DNA of 64,000 nt from Syntrophaceae bacterium (lineage in GTDB: Bacteria > Desulfobacterota > Syntrophia > Syntrophales > Smithellaceae). The DNA lies in NCBI GenBank assembly GCA_018056765.1, contig JAGPFA010000002.1, forward strand, positions 6,590 through 70,589, written 5' to 3'. Positions 6,047-45,034 of the stretch are shown piece after piece. Made by a program: the position numbers and the translations under genes. A model generated the notes under the pieces. The model had not been told where the DNA came from and made no database searches. It saw only the letters and a list, made by a program, of their open reading frames with translations. Position 1 is the stretch's first letter; each line of letters begins with the position of its first letter.

Positions 6047-7621
6047 TCACTCAGGAAGATTGATCCTGCTGCCGGAGAGCAGCACATCATTTTCAGACAT
6101 ATTGTTGAGCCGTCTTAATTCATCAACGGTAATGGAGCAGCTCCTGGCCAGAGAAAAAAGCGTGTCTCCGTCTTTGACCTTATATTTTTTAAGTTGTTTT
6201 TGCGGCACTGCCGACGGTGGCACTCCAGGAACCGGCACAATTATTTTCCTGCCGACAAGAAGCTTGTCGTTCATTTTCATTTTGTTCAAATCCAGAAGCA
6301 CCTGCAGGCTCGTTCCGTGCTTTCTGGCAATGGCAGACAGGTTATCACCGCGCCTCACCGAATAGAGCGAGGTCTGTACAGTTTCTGGCGTATTCTGCCT
6401 TTTTGCTGCTCTCACAGATATGTTGCCGGGCGGCATGGGGCTTCCCGCAATCGCGGCCCCGGCTGTCGTGATGCCGAAAAAATTGCCCACGGAAGCGGCC
6501 ACGGCCTGAGCGATGGTTTTGCGGAAACTGGTTTTTTTAAGCAACATCTCTTCTTCTGCGTTGGAGATATAAGCTGTTTCCAGAAGAATGGCCGGGATAT
6601 CCAGAAGCTTGAGCACACGGAAAGGAGCTTCATGAAAAACCGGATATTTCAAACAGTGCACACGACCGAGCTGATCGAGCAAATCCGAAGCGTAAGTTTT
6701 CGACATATTGATCGTATGCGTCTGAAACATATTGAGGACAATTTCATCGGACTGGTTACTGCTTTCGCCGTTGGGCACACCGCCGATGATATCGGAGAGG
6801 TTCTCATTGTTGGCCAGCAGTCTGGCTGCTTCATTGCTGGCCCCACGCGTGGAAAGACAGTAAACCGAACTGCCTCTGGCCTGACGATTGCGTGCCGCGT
6901 CGGCGTGCACGCTGATGAAAAGGTCCGCGTTGGCCCGCCGTGCTGTATCCAGGCGGTTCTTAAACGACACATAGTAATCCCCGTCGCGCGTCAATATCGC
7001 CCGGTAACCGGGCATCTTGTCGATCTCTTTTTTGATTTCACGGCTGATGGCCAGGACAACATGCTTTTCATAGGTTCCGTTTCTGCCGATGGCTCCGGGA
7101 TCTTCTCCTCCGTGCCCCGGATCAATCACGATCACTCTCTTTTTCAAAGCTTCAGGCGGCGGTTCCGGAAGCACCGCCTCGTCAACAGCCTGTTGCAGGA
7201 TGATATCCACCACCACGCGGTCAGGCTTCCCCATGAATTTTTTGAGTTTGAAAACTTCTACCTTGAAGTACTCGGTCAAAAACAGCTCGGCCCTGCAGAA
7301 AGCTCCGTCATTCTTCGTGAAAACAATCCTGGAGATACCCGGTTTGTCTATGGGCATTTCCTGGGCAAGAGTTTTTATGAAAAATGCGTCGTTGAATTCC
7401 AGAACAAGAATGTTGTCGCTGATGCTGTACCGGTAATCAGGCTCTCCGCTGAGATCGAAGACCACACGCGTGTGGTCGGGCGCTGCCCAGTAACGCACAT
7501 TTGATATTTCCGTAGCGGCAAGTCCCCGCCCTGTCCACAGCAGGACCGCTATAATCAGCAGTGCAAAAAATATTTGTCGTATTTTATGCGCTTGTCGTGA
7601 AAGCATGAAGCAAATTAACAA
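6047..7621 (-). CDS. N-acetylmuramoyl-L-alanine amidase (AMIN domain, Amidase_3 domain, two C-terminal LysM domains)
   Basis: 'VIVIDPGHGGEDPGAIG' and 'DLFISVHADA' are Amidase_3 motifs. Two LysM-like repeats are present: 'YSVRRGDNLSAIARKHG' and 'YKVKDGDTLFSLARSCS'. Confidence 0.85.
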   Translation of the reverse strand: MLICFMLSRQAHKIRQIFFALLIIAVLLWTGRGLAATEISNVRYWAAPDHTRVVFDLSGEPDYRYSISDNILVLEFNDAFFIKTLAQEMPIDKPGISRIVFTKNDGAFCRAELFLTEYFKVEVFKLKKFMGKPDRVVVDIILQQAVDEAVLPEPPPEALKKRVIVIDPGHGGEDPGAIGRNGTYEKHVVLAISREIKKEIDKMPGYRAILTRDGDYYVSFKNRLDTARRANADLFISVHADAARNRQARGSSVYCLSTRGASNEAARLLANNENLSDIIGGVPNGESSNQSDEIVLNMFQTHTINMSKTYASDLLDQLGRVHCLKYPVFHEAPFRVLKLLDIPAILLETAYISNAEEEMLLKKTSFRKTIAQAVAASVGNFFGITTAGAAIAGSPMPPGNISVRAAKRQNTPETVQTSLYSVRRGDNLSAIARKHGTSLQVLLDLNKMKMNDKLLVGRKIIVPVPGVPPSAVPQKQLKKYKVKDGDTLFSLARSCSITVDELRRLNNMSENDVLLSGSRINLPE

Positions 7622-18628: not shown

Positions 18629-19497
18629 TTTGTTTGAGGCTAACTGCGCCTCCATTGAATCTATTTACCTCGCTCAATCTTTAATGAACCGTGACACAAT
18701 CGGTTCATCTGTTGCTTCATGCGGTAATATCGCGACTATCACATCCTTTCCCTTTGGCCGTTGCCGACGACAGGCAGACAAGCAGCAGCCCCAAAAACAA
18801 AGCAGACTCCTTCACTGACCTGGTGTTTCTAATGAACAAAAATATAATTGCCTGCTGTAATATCAGACATGTAAGTATTTTTTTATACAGAACAATCGGC
18901 CTGCTCGGCCAGGAGGTACAAAAAACGGCAGAAAAGACTTCGGGCATTCCGTGGCTCCCTTTCCACTGTGAAAAGAAGTAAAATTACTTGAAACTGATCC
19001 TGCCCTGAAGATGCATCTGGAATCAATTTCTGATAATCAGGGAAGCAATGGACTTGCTTGACAGCAGTGTTTTTTTTAAATAAGTTTTTAAAACAATCCC
19101 TGATCTGCAACTTTCAGCCGAGTAGATAAATGAGGCTAAGTCAGTTACTGACTAAAAGTCAATTTGGTTTTTAAACCAAAGAAAAACTAAAGTCAAGGCA
19201 AATAAATTTCCTTCCTCCCAATCAGCAGATACGACCAAACAACCGGTTGGTAAGAGGCTGCCGTGTGATGCTAACTGCCGTTTTTAATTGACTTTTGGCC
19301 TTTTGCCGCAAAAACAATACGGCACTGCGTACCTCTATAGAGAAAATGTACCCGTGCATCACCGTCCAGTCTGCGAAGCCTTGTCTACCTTATGGCGGAA
19401 TATCAATCAAATTGGGGTATTATGATTATTTTATTTTGGACAAATCAGAGGGAAAATAGTAAGCATAGGACAACATTCATCTTTCGGGGGGATTCCC

Positions 19498-36907: not shown

Positions 36908-36915
36908 AAAACAGG

Positions 36916-37288
36916 CCGGAGAAGATCATAAGCCGGGTTCTGTTCCACGCCCGGGTTGCCCCTGACACGGTGATGATCATTCCTCTGGGACGCAGATTGC
37001 CCTGCGCCTCTAGCGACACTACCCGGGAACATCAGACGGGCCGCCTTCAAACGTCCCCCTATTTGGTCTTGCTCCGGATGGGGTTTACCATGCCTTTTCC
37101 GTCACCGGAAAAGCGGTGAGCTCTTACCTCGCCTTTTCACCCTTACCCGCCTGGGGCGGGCGGTATGTTTTCTGTGGCACTTTCCCTGGGGTCACCCCCG
37201 GTCGCCGTTAGCGACCATCCTGCCCTGCGGAGCCCGGACTTTCCTCGAACAGCTCATGGCTGCCCGCGATCATCTGATCTTCTCCGAC
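36916..37288 (-). ncRNA. rnpB: RNase P RNA, bacterial type A
   Basis: The minus strand contains GAGGAAAGTCCGGGCTC (P4 5' strand) and ACAGAACCCGGCTTA (P4 3' strand). The P1 stem CGGAGAAGATCA/TGATCTTCTCCG defines the ends, giving about 373 nt. Confidence 0.9.
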
Positions 37289-37296
37289 CTACTTTG

Positions 37297-37325
37297 ATAA
37301 TACTAATGTTCGGGATTACTTGCAA
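37297..37325 (-). promoter_or_regulatory. sigma70 promoter of rnpB
   Basis: On the minus strand, TTGCAA, 17 nt spacer, TATTAT. The -10 ends about 8 nt before the predicted RNA 5' end. Confidence 0.55.
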
Positions 37326-37366
37326 GAAATCTCCGCGCAGCTCCATCCGCGCAACACAAAGAACAT

Positions 37367-37449
37367 CCTTATCCTTTATCCTTTATCCTTTATCCTTTAT
37401 CCTTTAGCCTTTAGCCTTTAGCCTTTATCCTTTAGCCTTTAGCCTTCAT
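37367..37449. repeat. heptanucleotide tandem repeat, about 12 units of CCTTTAT/CCTTTAG
   Basis: Read directly: CCTTAT, CCTTTAT x4, CCTTTAG x3, CCTTTAT, CCTTTAG x2, CCTTCAT. It overlaps the stop codon of the RNase HI gene. Confidence 0.95.
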
Positions 37450-37852
37450 GCTCATCAATCGCCCGGTTGGCAAGCTTGTCGGCCAGTTCATTGTGACAAC
37501 GACGGACATGCCGGACATCGGCGGTTTCAAAGGAAGCAATCAGGTCGCGGACTTCCCGCATCAGGATTTTCAATTTCTCGTTTTTAACCTTGTACGAGCC
37601 GTTGATTTGGTTGGCAAGCAGTTCGGAATCAAGAAACACCTCCAGTCGGGCGACCCCCTGCGCCAGCGCCCCTTTTAACCCAAGAATCAGCGCCTTGTAT
37701 TCGGCAATATTGTTTGTGCAGTGGCCTAAATACTCACTTCCCTCCCAAAGCACCTGTCCATCATCGTCGATGATAACCGCACCTGCGCCGCCGATACCGG
37801 GATTACCACGACAGGCGCCGTCGCTGAAAAGTTTAACTGTTTTATTGTCCAT
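37439..37852 (-). CDS. rnhA: ribonuclease HI-family protein (137 aa)
   Basis: 'LFSDGACRGNPGIGGAGAVI', 'TNNIAEYKALILGL', 'FLDSELLANQI' and 'RRCHNELADKLAN' supply the DEDD-type residues. The start was moved to the ATG at 37852, because the longer ORF overlaps the upstream gene. Confidence 0.8.
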   Translation of the reverse strand: MDNKTVKLFSDGACRGNPGIGGAGAVIIDDDGQVLWEGSEYLGHCTNNIAEYKALILGLKGALAQGVARLEVFLDSELLANQINGSYKVKNEKLKILMREVRDLIASFETADVRHVRRCHNELADKLANRAIDEHEG

Positions 37853-37863
37853 ATTGCTATTTT

Positions 37864-38583
37864 CTATGCGGACGTGTCCTGAGCTTGAAAATACATAATC
37901 CGGTGGCAGCTCGGACAGCTCAGCAGATCGCTGGATCGCTGCAGTTCGTTGTACAGCTGCGGCGGTATGTTCATATGACAGCCGCTGCAAACTGCCTTCC
38001 AGACTGGAATGACACCTACGCCCTGGTTGCGCTTTCTTATTTTCTCATAAAGTGCCAGGAGATCCTCCGGAATATTCTTTTGCAGTGCCGACCTTTTCCT
38101 GTTCCATTCGTCAGATTCCGCGTCAAATGAACTGAGCTTCTCTTCAATTATTTTTTTATCATCCAGATAATTTTTTTCGGCCTGCTTTAATGTTTCCTGG
38201 TCCTGTTTCACCTGTACGGAAAGCTCGTCCATCTCCTCCAGCAATATAATGATCTGCGACTCCAATCCGCCCAAAGATGTTTCGGCTGTTTCAATTTCCT
38301 TGAGCATCGCCTGGTATTCTTTGTTGGTTTTCACATCGAGGAGCTTTTCTTTTGACCTGGCCATCGCCTCGCTTATTTTCTTAACTTTCAATTCATTCTC
38401 TTCGCGTTGAGTTTTGAGCTTCTCATATCTCATCGCGCTTTGTGAGATGCTTTCTTTGAAGCGCTGGAATTCCTCGTCAATTTTCTGAAGCTTTTCCGGT
38501 AAGCTGTTTTTTTTAGCCGACAGCCCGGCCAGCATAGAGTCACATTCCTGCAGACGGATAAGCAGCGATAATTTCTCGTTCAA
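37864..38583 (-). CDS. coiled-coil protein with a C-terminal C4 zinc ribbon (COG1579-like)
   Basis: A long heptad-rich body ends with 'CSGCHMNIPPQLYNEL....LLSCPSCHRIMY'. Confidence 0.7.
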   Translation of the reverse strand: MNEKLSLLIRLQECDSMLAGLSAKKNSLPEKLQKIDEEFQRFKESISQSAMRYEKLKTQREENELKVKKISEAMARSKEKLLDVKTNKEYQAMLKEIETAETSLGGLESQIIILLEEMDELSVQVKQDQETLKQAEKNYLDDKKIIEEKLSSFDAESDEWNRKRSALQKNIPEDLLALYEKIRKRNQGVGVIPVWKAVCSGCHMNIPPQLYNELQRSSDLLSCPSCHRIMYFQAQDTSA

Positions 38584-38684
38584 CCATCTTCTCCTTTTCT
38601 GTTGTTGTGTTGCGCGCCTGTAATTCCAGTCCTGCCGGCAAAATATCAGAACACTTCTTTTTCTGAAAGCCGGCGGCTGCTAAA

Positions 38685-38716
38685 TAAAAAATGCACCTTT
38701 TAAGGGTGCATTTTTG
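38685..38716 (-). terminator. rho-independent terminator downstream of tRNA-Met (end of the dnaG-rpoD-tRNA unit)
   Basis: ATGCACC-loop-GGTGCAT hairpin with an A-run and a T-run on either side. The minus strand reads hairpin then TTTTTTATTT. Confidence 0.65.
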
Positions 38717-38867
38717 AAAAAAGCCGAATGTGAGCTTCAACCTGCGTGCCGAGACATGACCATCCGCTGCGCCCGGGCACGGCAATATGGCTACCTGCAG
38801 TATCGCAACAACTCCTTGCTGTTAGAAAAAACATACTCTCCATAAGGATGCTCACTTCCGCGGAATT

Positions 38868-38943
38868 TGGTGGGCCCACCTGGGATCGAACCAGGGACCT
38901 ACCGGTTATGAGCCGGTGGCTCTACCAACTGAGCTATAGGCCC
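38868..38943 (-). tRNA. tRNA with anticodon CAU (elongator Met, or Ile2 if lysidine-modified)
   Basis: Cloverleaf folded by hand. Acceptor GGGCCTA/TGGGCCC. Anticodon stem ACCGG/CCGGT with loop CUCAUAA. T-arm CCTGG-TTCGATC-CCAGG. Encoded CCA. It lacks initiator features. Confidence 0.88.
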
Positions 38944-39079
38944 GCCCATTTTCTTGTGTGCGGGTTTAACCAATGCCTGACGCATGGCGCGGTGCCAACA
39001 CACCCATCAATCCGCAGTCTTCTGATCGAACCGGCATCAAGGTTCGTTGAAATATACCCAATCACACCGGTTGTCAACT

Positions 39080-40828
39080 CTATTTTGACGCGCGCCTGCG
39101 GGTAGAGCTGGTTGTTTTCACAGGCGGCTCGTCTTCATCGAGTTCCGGTACCTCCTCATACGGCTCTGTCTGATCCTCAATGATGCCTTCTTCAAGACCA
39201 GCAACCGCCATGCGATCGCTGATGCCGAACCTCATTCGTAAAACCTTCTCTTCCCGCGGCGTTAATGTAGAAAGAATTTTACGTGTCTGAGCGGCCAGAT
39301 CCATACTGATTGTCGCCTCCGAAGGTGACATGATCTTTTTGTCTTCGATAAAATCGCCCAGATGGCTGTCTTCCTCCTCACCAATCGGAGTTTCCAGGGA
39401 AATAGGCTCTTTTGCGATTTTCAGGACTTTGCGTACTTTTTCCAGAGGGAACTCCATTTTGTCGGCAATCTCCTCCGGGGTAGGTTCGCGCCCCAGTTCC
39501 TGAACAAGGTAGCGGGAAGTCCGAATCAGTTTATTGATGGTTTCGATCATATGCACGGGGATCCGAATAGTGCGCGCCTGATCGGCGATAGCGCGCGTAA
39601 TGGCCTGCCTGATCCACCATGTCGCATAAGTCGAGAACTTGTAGCCACGCTGGTATTCAAATTTGTCAACGGCTTTCATCAGGCCGATATTGCCCTCCTG
39701 GATCAGATCAAGAAACTGCAGGCCGCGGTTGGTGTATTTCTTCGCAATACTCACGACAAGACGTAAGTTGGCCTCCACCAGTTTTCTTTTAGCCAGCTCC
39801 GCCTTTGTCTCGCCTTCCTCAATGGACTCGACGACACTTTTTAAGGTCGAAGTGGGAATGCCCACTTCTTTGGCGATATGTTTGATACGCTTTTGCGCCT
39901 CGGTAACCGCCTGCTTGCTGCGGTGCAGCCATTCGACAGTCACTTTTGCTTCTTTGGCGACTTTTTTCTCCTCCTGGCTTGATTTTCTCATTCTGGACCA
40001 GGCTTTTTCCATCTGGGTGAGCGTCATGCCCGATTCTTTTTTGTATTGATTGATCACCCGTTCCGATTTCTCTATTTCATCAGCCAAAAAGCGAAGTTGC
40101 GTGATGAAGCGGTGCATCTGCTTCTTATTGAAGCGAATTTTTCGGCATAACGTAATGATGTTTTTAGAGTTTTTGGCCTGTTCCGCCGTCAGGGTCTCGC
40201 GCTGTTTGGGGCGCATGGTTTTAGATTTAAGTTTTTCACGAAGCTTTTCATTACGGTCATTGAACATCTTGATTCTCTCGATAAGACGAAGCACCCGGTC
40301 CTTGTGCTCATCATCGTCGAGGAATCCTTCTTCTCCTTCAATATTGTCTACAATACTTTTAATACGAATCTCATCCGTCGCCAACTTCTCGCCGATGTTG
40401 ATGACTTCCTCGATGGAAACGGGCAGACTGAAAATAGCCCACATGGTCTCGCGGGCTCCCTCTTCGATTTTTTTCGCTATCTCTACCTCTCCCTCCCGGC
40501 TCAAAAGCGATACCAGGCCCATTTCACGTAAATACATTTTAACCGGATCGCCTGTTTTACCTGCCGCGGGAGCCAAAGTCATCATTTCAGAAAACTTGGC
40601 TGACAGACTGTCGTCCGCCGGTTTTTTTACCACTAGTTTTTCACCCTGTTCCGTATCGATGATATCAATGTTCTTCTCACCGAATAACATAATGATTTCA
40701 TCTATCTGGTCCGATGAATTTATATCAGGCGGCAGCAGTTCATTGACATCGTCATAGGTTAAAAACCCCTTTTGCTCCCCCAGCGAAAGTAACTTTTTGA
40801 ATTCATCAGACTGAAGTTCTTTGGCCAT
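39080..40828 (-). CDS. rpoD: primary RNA polymerase sigma factor RpoD, with an aberrant C-terminus (region 4.2 not recognisable)
   Basis: Regions 1.2-4.1 are intact ('[63 protein letters not shown]', '[15 protein letters not shown]'). After 'MRFGI' the sequence is acidic and unrelated to 'TLEEVG..F.VTRERIRQIE.KALRKLRHP'. Confidence 0.88.
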
Positions 40829-40856
40829 TTGGCTTCCCCCGAATTTTTATTGTCGT

Positions 40857-42617
40857 TTATTGTAATTGCTTCTCTTGTCTTATTAAATCCTGCTTTTGGA
40901 AAGTCAACTCGCGTATCATTTCCTCGTCACCATCTTCCTGAGCCTGCCTTAACTGATGCTGAAGCAGGCGTTTTTTTTCTCTGTACCACTTTTCTTTTAT
41001 CCGGCGGATATTGTCTGCGAAATTACGCCCTACCATATTCTCATCGGTCGGAGGGGCCTCGATACTTAATTTATAAATCATGTCTTTGAGCGGTTTGTCC
41101 GCATCCGTAGGCAGGAGCACCTGTAGATCTATAAAACCAAGCAGTTTATAGGTCTGAATCATTTTTGCCCCCAAATCCTTCAGCTGCTCATCGAGAAATA
41201 AATCAATAATTTCTTCGCTCTCCACAAGCAAGATATTTTGCGGATACTCAAGCATCAAACGAATCAGGTTGACCTCAAGAGCGCTCCTGCCCGTTTGTGC
41301 CGTCTGACCGGGGCTGCCCTGGGCCGGCCTTGTGCGGCTTGTTTTTCGATAAGCTTCTTTTTTCAATAAAGCCTGATCTATCCCCAATTTCTCGGATATC
41401 CGTTTAATGAAGAGATTCCTTTCCAGACCATCTCCGATTTTTTCCAGGAACTCCATCGCTGTCTTGAGCAGATCACGGTTTTCCTCAAAAGTTTTGCCGT
41501 CTCCCAGGACATTGTCAATATAATAATCACTGACTGTGGGGGCGGCGGCAATCAAAGCAGCCATTTTTTCTTTTCCATGTTTTTTGACAAATTCATCCGG
41601 GTCGCTGCCATCAGGCAGTACCAGCGCACGTGCGCGCATATTGGCGGCCAAAAACAGCTCCAGAGCCCGGTCGAGTGCCCGGCGCCCCGCCTCGTCCGGA
41701 TCGAACAAGGCGACCACGTCCTTGGTGTAGCGACGCAAAAGATCCAGATGTTCTCTGGTCAGAGCCGTTCCCAGGGTCGCCACCACATTGCGTATACCGG
41801 CATCCCACAAAGATATAACGTCGAAGTATCCTTCCACGATCAGGCAAAAACCTTCCTGTCGGATCGCCTCTCTGGCCCTGTTCAGTCCGTATAAATTTTT
41901 CCCTTTGGTATAGACTGATGATTCCGGTGAGTTTAGGTATTTCGGTTCGCCACGGCCAATGATTCTGCCGCCGAATGCGATCACCTCGCCGAAAACATTC
42001 TCAATGGGAAAGATCAAACGGCCGCGAAAGCGATCATAGAAGCCTTCTTCCCTGCCGGCAACGACCAATCCCGCCTGCTCGGCCAGTTTCAAGGACAGTC
42101 CGCCCCCTTCCAGATGATCAGCAAGAGATCTCCATCTATCCGGCGCGTATCCCAGCCTGAATTGCCTGGAAACCTCTTCCGTTAAAGAGCGTGCCTGCAG
42201 GTAATCGCGGGCGGCCTTGCCCTCCGGTGACGAGAGATTACCGGCAAACCAATTAGCAGCCCTGAGGTTAATTCCGATAATGTCGTCGCGTTTTTCATCT
42301 TTATCGCCGCCCCGACCAAAAGTCCTGACCGGAAGAGTAACACCCGTTTTTTCCGCCAGATGACGAATAGCCTCAGGAAAACTCATGTCGGCAATTTTCA
42401 TCAGCAGCGTGATGGCATTGCCTCCTTCTCCACATCCGAAACAGTAAAAAATCTGTTTTTCACGATTAACGGTAAAGGAGGGGGTTTTTTCCTGGTGAAA
42501 AGGGCAGAGTCCCAGATAATTTCTGCCTGCTTTTTTTAACGTCAGGTACTCGCCCGCGAGTTCGACAATATCCACCCTGCTTTTAATCTCTTCAATCTTG
42601 CTGTCGTCAAAACGCAC
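40857..42617 (-). CDS. dnaG: DNA primase
   Basis: Zinc finger 'GLCPFHQEKTPSFTVNREKQIFYCFGCGEGGN'. TOPRIM 'LIVEGYFDVISL' and 'ALFDPDEAG'. Confidence 0.92.
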   Translation of the reverse strand: MRFDDSKIEEIKSRVDIVELAGEYLTLKKAGRNYLGLCPFHQEKTPSFTVNREKQIFYCFGCGEGGNAITLLMKIADMSFPEAIRHLAEKTGVTLPVRTFGRGGDKDEKRDDIIGINLRAANWFAGNLSSPEGKAARDYLQARSLTEEVSRQFRLGYAPDRWRSLADHLEGGGLSLKLAEQAGLVVAGREEGFYDRFRGRLIFPIENVFGEVIAFGGRIIGRGEPKYLNSPESSVYTKGKNLYGLNRAREAIRQEGFCLIVEGYFDVISLWDAGIRNVVATLGTALTREHLDLLRRYTKDVVALFDPDEAGRRALDRALELFLAANMRARALVLPDGSDPDEFVKKHGKEKMAALIAAAPTVSDYYIDNVLGDGKTFEENRDLLKTAMEFLEKIGDGLERNLFIKRISEKLGIDQALLKKEAYRKTSRTRPAQGSPGQTAQTGRSALEVNLIRLMLEYPQNILLVESEEIIDLFLDEQLKDLGAKMIQTYKLLGFIDLQVLLPTDADKPLKDMIYKLSIEAPPTDENMVGRNFADNIRRIKEKWYREKKRLLQHQLRQAQEDGDEEMIRELTFQKQDLIRQEKQLQ

Positions 42618-42672
42618 GAATGATCGCCTTACCCCTCAGATTTTGATGGACCAAGTCCGGGCAGACATGCCC

Positions 42673-43119
42673 TCACTGAGACAGAAGCGCTTTCACTTTT
42701 TCGCCGGCGGCTTTACCGTCCGCCCTGCCGGCGATCTTCGGCATCAGTGCTTTCATAACCTTGCCCATGTCCTTTGCCGAAACGGCACCTGTTTCGGCGA
42801 TAAGCTCCCTGATGAGTGCCTCCACCTCCTCTTCCGTCATCTGGGCCGGCATGAATGACTGGAGAACTTTCAGCTCCGCCTCCTCTTTTTCTACCAGATC
42901 CTGCCGGCCACCCCTGGCAAACTGCTCAATGGAGTCTTTTCTCTGTTTGACCATCTGCGACAAAATCTGCATCGACTCCGCCTCATTGGGCACACGCGCC
43001 AGGTCTATTTCCTTATTGTGCAAAGCGGTTTTCAACATCCTGAGCGCTGAGAGCGTAACTTTGTCCCTCGCCTTTGCCGCCGCCACCATTTGTTGTTCAA
43101 TTTTGACATTCAATTCCAT
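42673..43119 (-). CDS. GatB/YqeY domain-containing protein
   Basis: 'MVAAAKARDKVTLSALRMLKTALHNKEID' and '..GAVSAKDMGKVMKALMPKIAGRADGKAAGEKVKALL'. The start was set at the internal ATG at 43119. Confidence 0.8.
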   Translation of the reverse strand: MELNVKIEQQMVAAAKARDKVTLSALRMLKTALHNKEIDLARVPNEAESMQILSQMVKQRKDSIEQFARGGRQDLVEKEEAELKVLQSFMPAQMTEEEVEALIRELIAETGAVSAKDMGKVMKALMPKIAGRADGKAAGEKVKALLSQ

Positions 43120-43129
43120 CTTGCACCTC

Positions 43130-43474
43130 TTACCCGAGTTGATCTTCCAGTTTTCTTCCGGCCAGCAGATGCATGTGCAGGTGAAACACAACCTGGCCTC
43201 CATCGGAGTTGCAGTTGATTACCGTTCGAAAACCGTTTGCGGCAACCCGCTTGATTTCAGCGACTTTTTGTGAGGCCCGCACCATTTGCGTGACGATTTC
43301 CAGCTGGCCGGCCGCCACATCCATTAAAGTGGGAATGTGAATCTTGGGAATAATGACCACATGTACCGGCGCCATGGGCTGAATATCGTCAAAAGCCAGC
43401 ACCGTATCGTCTTCATAAACTTTCGAGCAGGGGATTTCTCCCCGGGCAATTTTACAAAAGATACAATCAGACAT
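43130..43474 (-). CDS. HIT-family (histidine triad) nucleotide hydrolase
   Basis: 'CIFCKIARGEIP', 'APVHVVIIPK' and the 'HLHMHLL' histidine triad. Confidence 0.85.
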   Translation of the reverse strand: MSDCIFCKIARGEIPCSKVYEDDTVLAFDDIQPMAPVHVVIIPKIHIPTLMDVAAGQLEIVTQMVRASQKVAEIKRVAANGFRTVINCNSDGGQVVFHLHMHLLAGRKLEDQLG

Positions 43475-43489
43475 ATCTCCCTCCTGCTT

Positions 43490-44221
43490 CTATGATTTCT
43501 CTTTTGCTTTTGCGATGGCCTCCACAAGCCCGATCGCTCCCGTGTACAAAGCGCGGCCGATGATCACTCCGTAGAAAGAACAGTCACGAACAGCCAAAAG
43601 CCTGTCGATATCCGCCAGCGTCGCCACGCCGCCGGAGGCGATGACCGGGACAGACACGGCCCGCGCCAGCGCCCTTGTTTGCTCCACGTTCACTCCCGTT
43701 TCCATGCCGTCGCGCTGTATATCTGTATAAACAATGGCCATAATATCACAGTCCGCAAACTGTTCGGCTAGATCAATCGCGTTTTGGCCTGTTTTTTGCG
43801 TCCAACCATGAACCGCTACCTGCCCCTCCAGTGCATCGATGCCCAGAATGATTTTTCCCGGATATTTATTTGTCGCCTGCCGGACAAATTCTTCATCCAA
43901 AACGGCGGCTGTCCCGAGAATCACGTTGGCCACGCCATTTTCCAGGTAGTGGCTGATCGTTTCCATATTACGGATGCCACCTCCCACTTCGACCGGCACT
44001 CCGACAGTTTGGGCGATCTCCAATATGACGGGTGCGTTCTTCGGCAAACCGGCAACAGATCCGTTCAAATCCACAATGTGGATTCTTTCCGCCCCTTCTT
44101 GAGCCCAGCGACGGGCCATGTCTACGGGATTGTCACAATAGACGGTAACACGTTCAAAGTCGCCCTGTGCCAGGCGGACACACTGACCGTTTTTTATGTC
44201 GACAGCGGGAATAATGATCAA
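43490..44221 (-). CDS. hisA: ProFAR isomerase (HisA)
   Basis: 'IIIPAVDIKNGQCVRLAQGDF', 'IHIVDLNGS', 'VEVGGGIR' and 'VIASGGVATLADI'. Confidence 0.9.
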   Translation of the reverse strand: MIIIPAVDIKNGQCVRLAQGDFERVTVYCDNPVDMARRWAQEGAERIHIVDLNGSVAGLPKNAPVILEIAQTVGVPVEVGGGIRNMETISHYLENGVANVILGTAAVLDEEFVRQATNKYPGKIILGIDALEGQVAVHGWTQKTGQNAIDLAEQFADCDIMAIVYTDIQRDGMETGVNVEQTRALARAVSVPVIASGGVATLADIDRLLAVRDCSFYGVIIGRALYTGAIGLVEAIAKAKEKS

Positions 44222-44320
44222 GTCAAAAGACTCCGTTGTAAAATAATTAAATTACGACAAGCAACCCGTTAATCATGATTAAGTGCGTCGGCTTTTGGAA
44301 CCGTCAAAGCCGATACAAAG

Positions 44321-45034
44321 TCAGCGACCGGGCTGGTTTTCAAAAACGGGAAAGGTCTCAAAAACCTCATCAACACCCAGTCTGGTCAATTCGCGTGCTG
44401 TCACCCATTTGGCGCCGCCTTTGAAAAAGGAAGATGCCAAAAACAGATCTTCCATCAGAGACTTTTGCGTCCTGTCAAAAATACCGCGCCACAGACTGCT
44501 GCCATCCTTGACGGAAATCAAATGGATCTCGAATGATACCGAGGCGGGGGTTTTTGCCGAATAGCTGTAGCCGACTCTTTCGCGACAGCGATAAACAAAA
44601 CCGGCCACAACAACATCCGCAGCGAGCTCCCGGCCGGTTTGCTGCACCGCCTCCAGCATCGAACCCTTGAGAGTGGAGGAGGAAATCCGCCGATAGACAC
44701 CTGCCGCTCTTTCCGGGGCGATAATTTCCACATTTTTCAACTCTCTTAATTTGCTTATGAATATTTCTTCCAGATTTGTTTGTGCCCCCTGAGCAACGGC
44801 TCCACCTGAATTAACATGGCCGCACAACGGACAGCGCACGGTTGTTGAAGCGGAATTCTCCGGTTCCAGCGCCATAAATGGAATAACAGCCAGGCGCGTT
44901 TTCGTCACAACTGTGATATTTTCGTCGCCCTGAGCTGCTGCACCGCAGGGGATAGCCAGAACAAAACAAAAAAACAATATGATCCGAATGACCTGCCCAA
45001 TCCCGTATCTGTCCTGCATTTTGCCTCCTTGCAC
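44321..45034 (-). CDS. secreted or lipoprotein of unknown function inserted in the his cluster
   Basis: Hydrophobic signal 'IILFFCFVLAIPCGAAAQG'. A 'LAVIPFMALEPENS' beta-strand start resembles LpoB/CsgG-type folds. A 'CPLCGH' motif is present. No confident family assignment; ATG at 45019 is an alternative start. Confidence 0.5.
   Translation of the reverse strand: MQGGKMQDRYGIGQVIRIILFFCFVLAIPCGAAAQGDENITVVTKTRLAVIPFMALEPENSASTTVRCPLCGHVNSGGAVAQGAQTNLEEIFISKLRELKNVEIIAPERAAGVYRRISSSTLKGSMLEAVQQTGRELAADVVVAGFVYRCRERVGYSYSAKTPASVSFEIHLISVKDGSSLWRGIFDRTQKSLMEDLFLASSFFKGGAKWVTARELTRLGVDEVFETFPVFENQPGR

Follow-up and report, generated by a model that had tools for sequence, protein, structure and literature searches.

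A dnaG-linked RpoD without a recognisable region 4.2 in Smithellaceae and the apparent graded remodelling of this region in Syntrophales

Region 4.2 is regarded as a universal part of primary sigma factors. It recognises the -35 box, holds sigma on the beta flap of RNA polymerase (RNAP) and determines the spacing between the -35 and -10 elements; class II activators, anti-sigma factors and 6S RNA also dock there. As established by structures and genetics, its helix-turn-helix (HTH) makes the base-specific -35 contacts with the second helix, and in E. coli R584, E585, R588 and Q589 are involved. The importance of the -35 box shifts from lineage to lineage, as in the case of sigma-A of Bacteroidota, the weak -35 boxes of Campylobacter and Helicobacter, and the compensation provided by RbpA and CarD in mycobacteria. 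All these primary sigmas keep a folded 4.2 HTH, unlike the RpoD described here, which is encoded in a 64,000-nucleotide (nt) stretch of the genome of a Syntrophaceae bacterium, assigned by GTDB to Smithellaceae (assembly GCA_018056765.1, contig JAGPFA010000002.1, positions 6,590 to 70,589; hereafter the window). In this protein, which has the hallmarks of a primary sigma, the place of region 4.2 is taken by an acidic tail with a basic end.

Several described systems show that RNAP works with a sigma devoid of usable region 4, namely the late sigma gp55 of phage T4 with its co-activator gp33, and the sigma appropriation by AsiA/MotA; gp33 occupies the beta flap, while MotA supplies a new upstream DNA-reading module. 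These are phage systems acting on the host polymerase, whereas the Smithellaceae RpoD is the cell's own dnaG-linked sigma and its partner is hypothetical. In the SigO-RsoA (YvrI-YvrHa) system of Bacillus subtilis, promoter recognition is divided between two polypeptides. It may serve as a model for a provider of region 4 acting in trans; however, SigO is an alternative sigma with a narrow regulon, compared here with the primary sigma of a whole order, for which the second polypeptide is again hypothetical. As in the gp55/gp33 and SigO-RsoA types, the RpoD of the window is a sigma polypeptide without a -35-reading domain. Finally, C-terminally truncated E. coli sigma-70 reportedly acts at extended -10 promoters (Kumar et al. 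1993), and a primary sigma that lacks functional region 4.2 and initiates via -10 contacts is the simplest model for the window RpoD. The truncated protein is a laboratory construct, though, whereas the Smithellaceae segment has been retained, apparently remodelled and kept under natural selection, and the extended -10 motif (TGn) is not enriched in the window. Given these precedents, each of the solutions proposed below is mechanistically possible.

The rpoD locus of the window comprises the following features (aa, amino acids; ORF, open reading frame; NCR, non-conserved region; dN/dS, ratio of nonsynonymous to synonymous substitution rates):

39080..40828, minus strand: rpoD, a 582-aa group-1-type sigma factor (ORF list, Pfam, NCBIfam), with regions 1.1, 1.2, NCR, 2, 3 and 4.1 intact and region 4.2 apparently remodelled
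39221..39316, minus strand: region 4.1, approximately aa 505-536 (Pfam, alignment, dN/dS), nearly invariant across the 78 Syntrophales RpoDs compared
39083..39220, minus strand: putatively remodelled tail of 46 aa (aa 537-582), with the place and length of region 4.2 and no HTH
39083..39121, minus strand: basic C-terminal motif of the tail, 13 aa, family consensus 'KKxKxSSRKRAAK' (MAFFT alignment)
39080..39082, minus strand: rpoD stop codon TAG
40857..42617, minus strand: dnaG (primase), directly upstream of rpoD (ORF list; Pfam families of the orthologue in loci L001-L004)
38868..38943, minus strand: tRNA-Met (CAT), 136 nt downstream of the rpoD stop codon (ARAGORN, Rfam)

Pfam profiles identified region 1.1 (PF03979, E=1.5e-18, aa 5-72), region 1.2 (PF00140, E=6.4e-12, aa 94-124), region 2 (PF04542, E=3.8e-24) and region 3 (PF04539, E=1.4e-31). 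Regions 2 and 3, responsible for -10 recognition and core binding and containing the extended -10 residues, are nearly identical in alignment to those of solved sigma-70 structures, and the motif 'IPVHMIET' is conserved. In contrast, the match to Sigma70_r4 (PF04545) is limited to aa 519-535, that is, to profile positions 2-18 of 50, which correspond to region 4.1 alone, while positions 19-50 have no match. The protein passes the cut-off of the NCBIfam RpoD equivalog PRK05658 (624.8 bits vs 555; the match spans model positions 20-587 of 631) and falls below that of RpoD_Cterm TIGR02393 (335.2 vs 354). In phmmer comparisons with all solved sigma-A/sigma-70 chains the last 206 aa reached E-values down to 1e-81, and the alignments ended at 'RFGIS', at about residue 566-567 of the 613 residues of E. 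coli sigma-70. Canonical group-1 sigmas (E. coli sigma-70/RpoD; sigma-A of Thermus, Bacillus and Mycobacterium; e.g., PDB 4JK1, 7YE1) share with the window RpoD regions 1.1-4.1, at very high identity, and the dnaG-rpoD gene order; however, beyond 'RFGI', where the alignments end, they have two helices of region 4.2, 'TLEEVG..F.VTRERIRQIE.' KALRKLRHPSRS, and the window RpoD has a tail of equal length composed of acidic, Pro-containing and basic segments, with no HTH pattern.

The Smithellaceae tails follow the consensus 'SDRlg…e…epe..e…kk.k…rKR..K' and are 45-48 aa long, with about 11 acidic residues, 8 basic residues and 3 prolines. Their middle part is highly variable and the basic end is the best-conserved part: in 49 Smithellaceae sequences K578 and R579 are present in at least 90%, and K582 is invariant. 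In the MAFFT alignment the basic ends of Smithellaceae (KKAKNSSRKRAAK), Syntrophaceae (RKLRNPSRRRLLK) and canonical sigma-70 ('RKLRHPSRSxxLK') are in register. Region 4.2 was not found in the other two frames of 38944-39262, and a tblastn search of the 64-kb window revealed no other canonical, extracytoplasmic function (ECF)-type or LuxR-type region 4.

The original prediction, made from the letters of the window alone, had described an RpoD in the canonical dnaG-rpoD context, textbook from region 1.2 to region 4.1 and lacking a recognisable region 4.2, with tRNA-Met beginning 136 nt past its stop codon. The description holds in all these respects: the gene order follows from the ORF positions and is the same in L001-L004, the distance to the tRNA gene was reproduced by ARAGORN, the upstream regions agree with Pfam and with solved sigmas, and the loss of region 4.2 is confirmed by Pfam, by the TIGR02393 shortfall and by the structure alignments ending at RFGI. 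The proposed Sigma70_r4/Sigma70_r3 profile search gave the outcome anticipated, with a strong region 3 and region 4 matched over 4.1 only. The absence of an HTH pattern from the acidic Pro-containing tail agrees with a profile comparison (hhalign) of the Smithellaceae tail with canonical region 4.2, which yielded no recognisable similarity (E=0.16), and re-examination of 38944-39262 again found no 'RERIRQIE'-like segment in the other minus-strand frames. In the absence of the 4.2 HTH the window RpoD would not make the canonical base-specific -35 contacts, and we infer that it cannot read TTGACA itself.

The tail is shared by relatives of the bacterium. Scanning one genome per GTDB species yielded 80 rpoD loci, 54 of the Smithellaceae type and 26 from other Syntrophales (both Smithella and Syntrophus are placed in Syntrophales, an order of the class Syntrophia). 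The pattern 'RFGIS[DN]R…acidic…KKxKxSSRKRAAK' is present in 54/54 Smithellaceae-type loci. The other 26 have the junction 'RFGISER…'; they include a metagenome-assembled genome (MAG) labelled Syntrophus aciditrophicus and the complete genome of Syntrophus buswellii DM-2. The canonical 'TLEEVG..F.VTRERIRQIE' occurs in none of the 80 loci. The 76 loci with a complete ORF retain both frame and length (proteins of 579-585 aa, tails of 44-49 aa after 'RFGI'). Of the remaining loci, L040 and L075 are cut by a contig end, and no rpoD ORF was recovered in L085. In L032, from a Smithellaceae MAG, an early stop codon interrupts the tail and gives a protein of 564 aa ('…VESNYRRAGDY'), while the normal tail continues out of frame; this is probably an assembly frameshift. 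Among the best 120 database clusters all proteins are 571-591 aa long and 79-90% identical to the window RpoD over 100% of the query. They are labelled Smithella, Smithellaceae or Syntrophaceae, carry the public annotation RpoD and are in some cases located on contigs of 3.5-5.2 Mb; 14 of 15 proteins inspected from these clusters have the same type of tail at the C-terminus.

Syntrophaceae RpoDs (S. aciditrophicus, S. buswellii and uncultured relatives) have the same locus, length of 579-585 aa, region 4.1 and 'RFGIS' junction as the window RpoD. Their tails are still recognisable as region 4.2, whereas the Smithellaceae tail of the window retains the basic end only. The tails outside Smithellaceae form clade-specific classes:

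Class (i): SAEESRESLELSRERAKQIESGA. RKLRNPSRRRLLKP, with recognition-helix residues kept and the first HTH helix now hydrophilic
Class (ii): NLSLEITRQAETNGVRKLRNPSRRK, S. aciditrophicus group
Class (iii): STRREAPRPLPASSGKKMINPPRRR
Class (iv): GDEELEKGESEEEIPDPIEINVIRKLRNPSRRR, S. buswellii

One Syntrophaceae clade retains both 'RERAKQIE' and 'RKLRNPSRRR'. Further intermediates, 'GIGEKSD..' MMERSKQIEANALRRLRNPSRRRELR, were found among rpoD fragments labelled Syntrophales, and canonical region 4.2 sequences came from other lineages, several of them labelled Deltaproteobacteria or Proteobacteria. In hhalign comparisons the Syntrophaceae-type tails matched canonical region 4.2 with a probability of 98.7% (E=4.3e-16), colinearly over columns 1-47, and the Smithellaceae tails matched the Syntrophaceae tails weakly and in register over the last 24 columns (E=0.011). 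In the tree of the conserved core the tail classes correspond to clades, and the decayed tails of S. buswellii and L071 stand beside or inside the 'RERAKQIE' clade; therefore, the decay occurred more than once.

Origin of the tail by a frameshift was considered and rejected, as the hidden Markov model of the Smithellaceae tail matches only in-frame translations of the relatives' DNA, and these weakly. That the window tail is homologous to region 4.2 is argued by its position and conserved length, by the orthologous flanks, by the basic end being in register and by the existence of intermediates, and the Syntrophaceae RpoDs appear to be evolutionary intermediates of the same process. The alignment with RpoD of related bacteria that had been suggested along with the original prediction thus shows a tail common to 54 Smithellaceae and what looks like a graded remodelling of region 4.2 in 26 other Syntrophales, which seems to have proceeded in place and with preservation of length.

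Selection on the tail was estimated from 23 phylogenetically independent Smithellaceae pairs with bootstrap. The dN/dS was 0.040 (0.033-0.047) for RpoD residues 1-500, 0.014-0.015 for region 4.1 and 0.263 (0.175-0.369) for the tail; the estimate from all pairs was similar (core 0.035, tail 0.25). The Smithellaceae tail is thus approximately 6.5-fold relaxed, yet clearly not neutral: it is under purifying selection, and its length, acidity and basic end are maintained. In other Syntrophales tail and core are equally constrained (0.107 vs 0.089). AlphaFold2, run with 49 near-identical Smithellaceae sequences, placed no helix after residue 541 and gave the tail a predicted local distance difference test (pLDDT) score of 25-30 (mean 58 for the model); that the tail is disordered is weakly supported by this prediction.

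The sequence of the locus is authentic. At least 20 public runs, which come from more than 10 studies of wastewater, digester and sludge metagenomes, contain 99% or more of the words sampled from the segment 38800-40900. Single Logan contigs of separately assembled runs from different studies show 0 differences to the window, at even depth: X27 covers 37443-44500, X26 covers 37417-42506, and X25 covers 38870-44500. Moreover, rpoD is transcribed as written, since metatranscriptome contigs X49 (38899-40178), X50 (39033-39479) and X54 (39033-39518) also have 0 differences and no joints across the junction of region 4.1 and the tail. Repair at the RNA level by editing or splicing is rejected, as the RNA contigs are colinear with the DNA and without joints. 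An upper bound of 0.37 for the tail dN/dS and independent DNA and RNA contigs identical to the window are at odds with a pseudogene or an artefact.

The persistence of -35 boxes has to be set against this remodelled sigma. Three features of the window are relevant:

39051..39077, minus strand: promoter-like element of tRNA-Met directly after the rpoD stop codon, TTGACA (39077-39072), 15-nt spacer, TATATT (39056-39051)
36914-37285: rnpB (Rfam)
37297..37325, minus strand: promoter-like element of rnpB, TTGCAA-17-TATTAT (promoter scan)

TTGACA is present at the tRNA-Met position in 77 of 79 complete Syntrophales loci, and in 75 aligned loci the hexamer and 'GGTATA' are conserved, the spacer being variable. 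L015, L028 and L080 have TTGACA-15-TATAAT upstream of tRNA-Met. TTGACA and TATAxT are 15 nt apart, less than the usual 17±1, and this spacing is conserved throughout the order (window, L005-L083). No significant structure was predicted for the leader RNA between promoter and tRNA-Met (z=0.01). The rnpB element indicates that -35/-10 promoters with canonical spacing are present in the organism, and the Smithellaceae rnpB orthologues retain cTTGAAa-17-TAnnnT. Other well-formed candidate boxes in intergenic DNA, with 16-17-nt spacing and AT-rich upstream flanks, are located, for example, at 19058, 36343, 47392 and 59391; a generic promoter scan of the window gave 29 matches vs 21.4±3.8 expected. 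Judging from their conservation, selection appears to keep the -35-type boxes in place in bacteria with an RpoD devoid of a -35-reading domain. As TTGACA/TTGAAA boxes persist at -35 positions, some -35 reader should still exist; the same conclusion had been drawn initially from several good -35 boxes in the window, and it gains support from phylogenetic footprinting of the promoters of tRNA-Met and rnpB.

We assign a probability of about 0.62 to the reading that the window RpoD is a genuine, expressed and orthologous group-1 (primary) sigma, in which region 4.2 has been remodelled in place to a probably disordered, acidic, Pro-containing linker followed by a basic motif. Region 1.1, NCR, linkage to dnaG, the PRK05658 score and the strong constraint on the core (dN/dS 0.040) are all hallmarks of the primary type. 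A genuine rearranged housekeeping sigma, implying altered -35 recognition or a second rpoD, was one of the options of the original prediction; the genuine sigma is favoured by our analysis, but 'rearranged' does not describe it, as the C-terminus diverged where it stood, without a change of length or position.

In the mechanism proposed, the Smithellaceae RpoD holoenzyme would recognise promoters via sigma-2/sigma-3 (-10 region), region 4.1 and the basic end would retain a non-specific role, for example in contacts with a partner protein, with the DNA backbone or with the beta flap, and either an adaptor or another member of the sigma-70 family would read the conserved -35 boxes. For this reader, a second sigma-70-family protein with intact region 4 is a tentative candidate, perhaps with somewhat less than an even chance. 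A trans-acting sigma-4-like adaptor docking on region 4.1, the tail or the beta flap seems unlikely, and conservation of the -35 boxes for another reason is quite unlikely. It is doubtful, although conceivable, that Syntrophales have no group-1 or group-2 sigma with intact region 4.2 at all, the -35 boxes being read via a separate subunit or adaptor bound to one of these three sites, or the contacts of sigma-4 with the -35 element being dispensed with at most promoters.

Several observations weigh against the remodelled primary sigma as read here. First, no significant similarity connects the Smithellaceae tail with region 4.2, the in-register matches being weak (E=0.011 and 0.16). Second, in Syntrophaceae the tails are as constrained as the core (0.107 vs 0.089) and one clade retains 'RERAKQIE', so that some -35 reading by RpoD itself may survive there. 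Third, with mainly -10-driven recognition an enrichment of extended -10 (TGn) sites might be expected, but none was observed in the window (2 of 107 -10-like sites vs 6% background); in its mere 9.5 kb of intergenic DNA the -35 signal at 17-nt spacing does not clearly exceed that at other spacings, and the promoter statistics accordingly have little discriminating power. Fourth, the AlphaFold2 model is poor overall, with a mean pLDDT of 58 and sigma-2 also below 50. Finally, the search for a partner sigma or adaptor is confined to the 64-kb window and a nucleotide comparison with one S. buswellii assembly.

This search gave the following results. The 64-kb window encodes no other sigma region 2 or region 4 and no LuxR-like HTH; the detached region-4 fragment that had been suggested as an object of search was likewise not found within it. 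Assembly X1 of S. buswellii, which is isolate-like (667 contigs, 3.23 Mb), contains no second contig that matches rpoD at 80% or higher nucleotide identity; this argues against a recent duplicate, although a diverged group-2 sigma would escape such a comparison. Short 'stand-alone region 4' proteins were examined as candidates and rejected, as they are rpoD fragments at contig ends or in frameshifted long-read contigs and not separate genes. Examples are L085 (2846-3288) and L086 (968-2761), long-read metagenome contigs of other taxa with rpoD broken by frameshifts or present as a 3' remnant only; such broken genes are the source of spurious short 'Sigma70_r4-only' proteins in public collections.

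Full-text literature searches retrieved no description of an RpoD without region 4.2 in Smithella or Syntrophus, or of any such primary sigma. A large comparative study of sigma-70 proteins defined orthologues by requiring PF04545 (PMC8716302), and such a requirement would tend to exclude the Syntrophales RpoDs from surveys of this kind. The whole order appears to have remodelled region 4.2, with complete loss of the HTH in Smithellaceae. The graded series, from the canonical region through tails that keep 'RERAKQIE' and have lost the first helix to the fully acidic tail, would represent a natural experiment on the dismantling of an essential DNA-reading domain. Syntrophales include syntrophic degraders of fatty acids, benzoate and alkanes, which drive methanogenic digesters and subsurface carbon turnover. 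If the remodelling is real, their promoter recognition and activator wiring differ from the textbook scheme, promoter prediction and heterologous expression for the order need revision, and a partner of RNAP may await discovery. If, in addition, they have no sigma with intact region 4.2, this would be the first free-living bacterial order whose primary sigma gave up the -35 HTH; the degree of interest thus hinges on the existence of a second, intact sigma.

The best-surviving alternative, although an unlikely one, is that the housekeeping role has moved to another sigma-70-family gene with intact region 4, the dnaG-linked RpoD having become a specialised sigma for promoters without -35 boxes. 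Such a transfer would agree with the conserved -35 boxes preceding stable-RNA genes, whose transcription normally depends on the primary sigma, and with the relaxation of region 4.2, which began at or near the base of Syntrophales and continued independently in several clades, as would be expected had RpoD no longer been needed for -35 reading. However, region 1.1, NCR, dnaG linkage and the core dN/dS are all typical of a primary sigma, rpoD is transcribed in situ, the window contains no other sigma region 2 or 4, and S. buswellii X1 has no close paralogue at the nucleotide threshold given above, which a diverged group-2 sigma would not reach.

Recognition of the -35 box by the remodelled tail itself in a new mode, e.g., by folding upon binding or by insertion of the basic end (KKxKxSSRKRAAK) in a DNA groove, is improbable. 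Purifying selection on the tail, with the basic end as its best-conserved part, would be in line with such a mode, and the unusual order-wide 15-nt spacing of TTGACA and TATAxT before tRNA-Met could reflect altered geometry. But the tail is acidic and Pro-rich, with a highly variable middle part and no predicted helix, and rnpB and other promoters use the canonical 17-nt spacing. Moreover, short basic tails bind DNA without hexamer specificity, which speaks against this mode as well.

The third alternative, already raised by the original prediction, is a recombination scar, in which an event at the neighbouring tRNA-Met gene would have put foreign or non-coding sequence in place of the 3' end of rpoD, tRNA genes of this kind being known integration hotspots. 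One Smithellaceae genome indeed has an integrase island right after tRNA-Met, and the mosaic identity between locus L005 and the window ends near the tRNA gene. Nevertheless, a scar is barely credible, and we reject it. The junction 'RFGIS[DE]R', the tail length and the terminal basic motif are common to all 80 species representatives, and the tail itself to 54/54 Smithellaceae, with no alternative-frame origin; the Syntrophaceae tails are significantly homologous to region 4.2; the tail dN/dS is well below 1, as expected under purifying selection; the promoter between the rpoD stop codon and the tRNA gene is conserved order-wide; and the L005 mosaic boundary, at approximately 38,850-38,900, lies downstream of both the tail and the stop codon.

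The remaining option of the original prediction, an assembly chimera, and with it a frameshift or a sequencing error in the window, has a negligible chance and is rejected, for although some public contigs of the rpoD locus really are mosaic (L001/P0120 and L005) and some long-read assemblies have a frameshifted rpoD (L085, L086), the window is matched without differences by X27, X26 and X25 from different studies, is represented in at least 20 runs, agrees with identical and colinear RNA contigs, and contains no region 4.2 in its other reading frames.

The rpoD-tRNA-Met region shows some variation among relatives. In L003 (8077-13746) genes for a phage-type integrase, an AlpA-like protein and a primase-polymerase/DUF3987 protein directly follow rpoD-tRNA-Met and replace the usual neighbours; tRNA-Met serves as an integration site of genomic islands. 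L005 comes from a co-assembled Smithella MAG that represents its species in GTDB. Its identity to the window is 97.5-100% at approximately 39,020-41,420 (3' part of dnaG and rpoD), 94.5% across the tRNA-Met bin and 70-93% (mostly 80-87%) on both sides. As the window is contiguous in three independent assemblies, the oddity lies in L005, which is either a co-assembly chimera or the carrier of a recombined rpoD segment. Protein P0120, at first sight an RpoD of Smithellaceae ending in a 4.2-like sequence, was discarded because of the mosaic nature of its contig L001, which shares 99.7% identity with the Smithellaceae species of P0099 up to about position 6760, at the end of region 3/4.1 of rpoD, and beyond this point represents an unsampled lineage, in which RpoD ends with GIGEKSDLTEDLENAEMIERTKQIEANALRRLRNPSRRRELRTLIK and the tRNA-Met promoter has a 16-17-nt spacing.

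The gene following tRNA-Met in the window is located as follows:

37864-38583, minus strand: CT398/HP0958-like gene, coding for a coiled-coil hairpin and a C4 zinc ribbon

It is found downstream of rpoD-tRNA-Met in 70 of 83 loci. Members of the CT398/HP0958 family in Chlamydia and Helicobacter have been reported to bind sigma-54; any link between this neighbour and the remodelled RpoD is pure speculation. Between hisB and hisA, an ORF of 237 aa (44321-45034, minus strand) has no Pfam match and a hydrophobic N-terminus resembling a signal or lipoprotein leader; its orthologue in L001-L004 is 228 aa long and likewise has no recorded Pfam match. Between the RNase H gene and rnpB there is a 7-nt tandem repeat, ATCCTTT, in 11.9 copies (37365-37446), at which the Logan assemblies of all four runs end.

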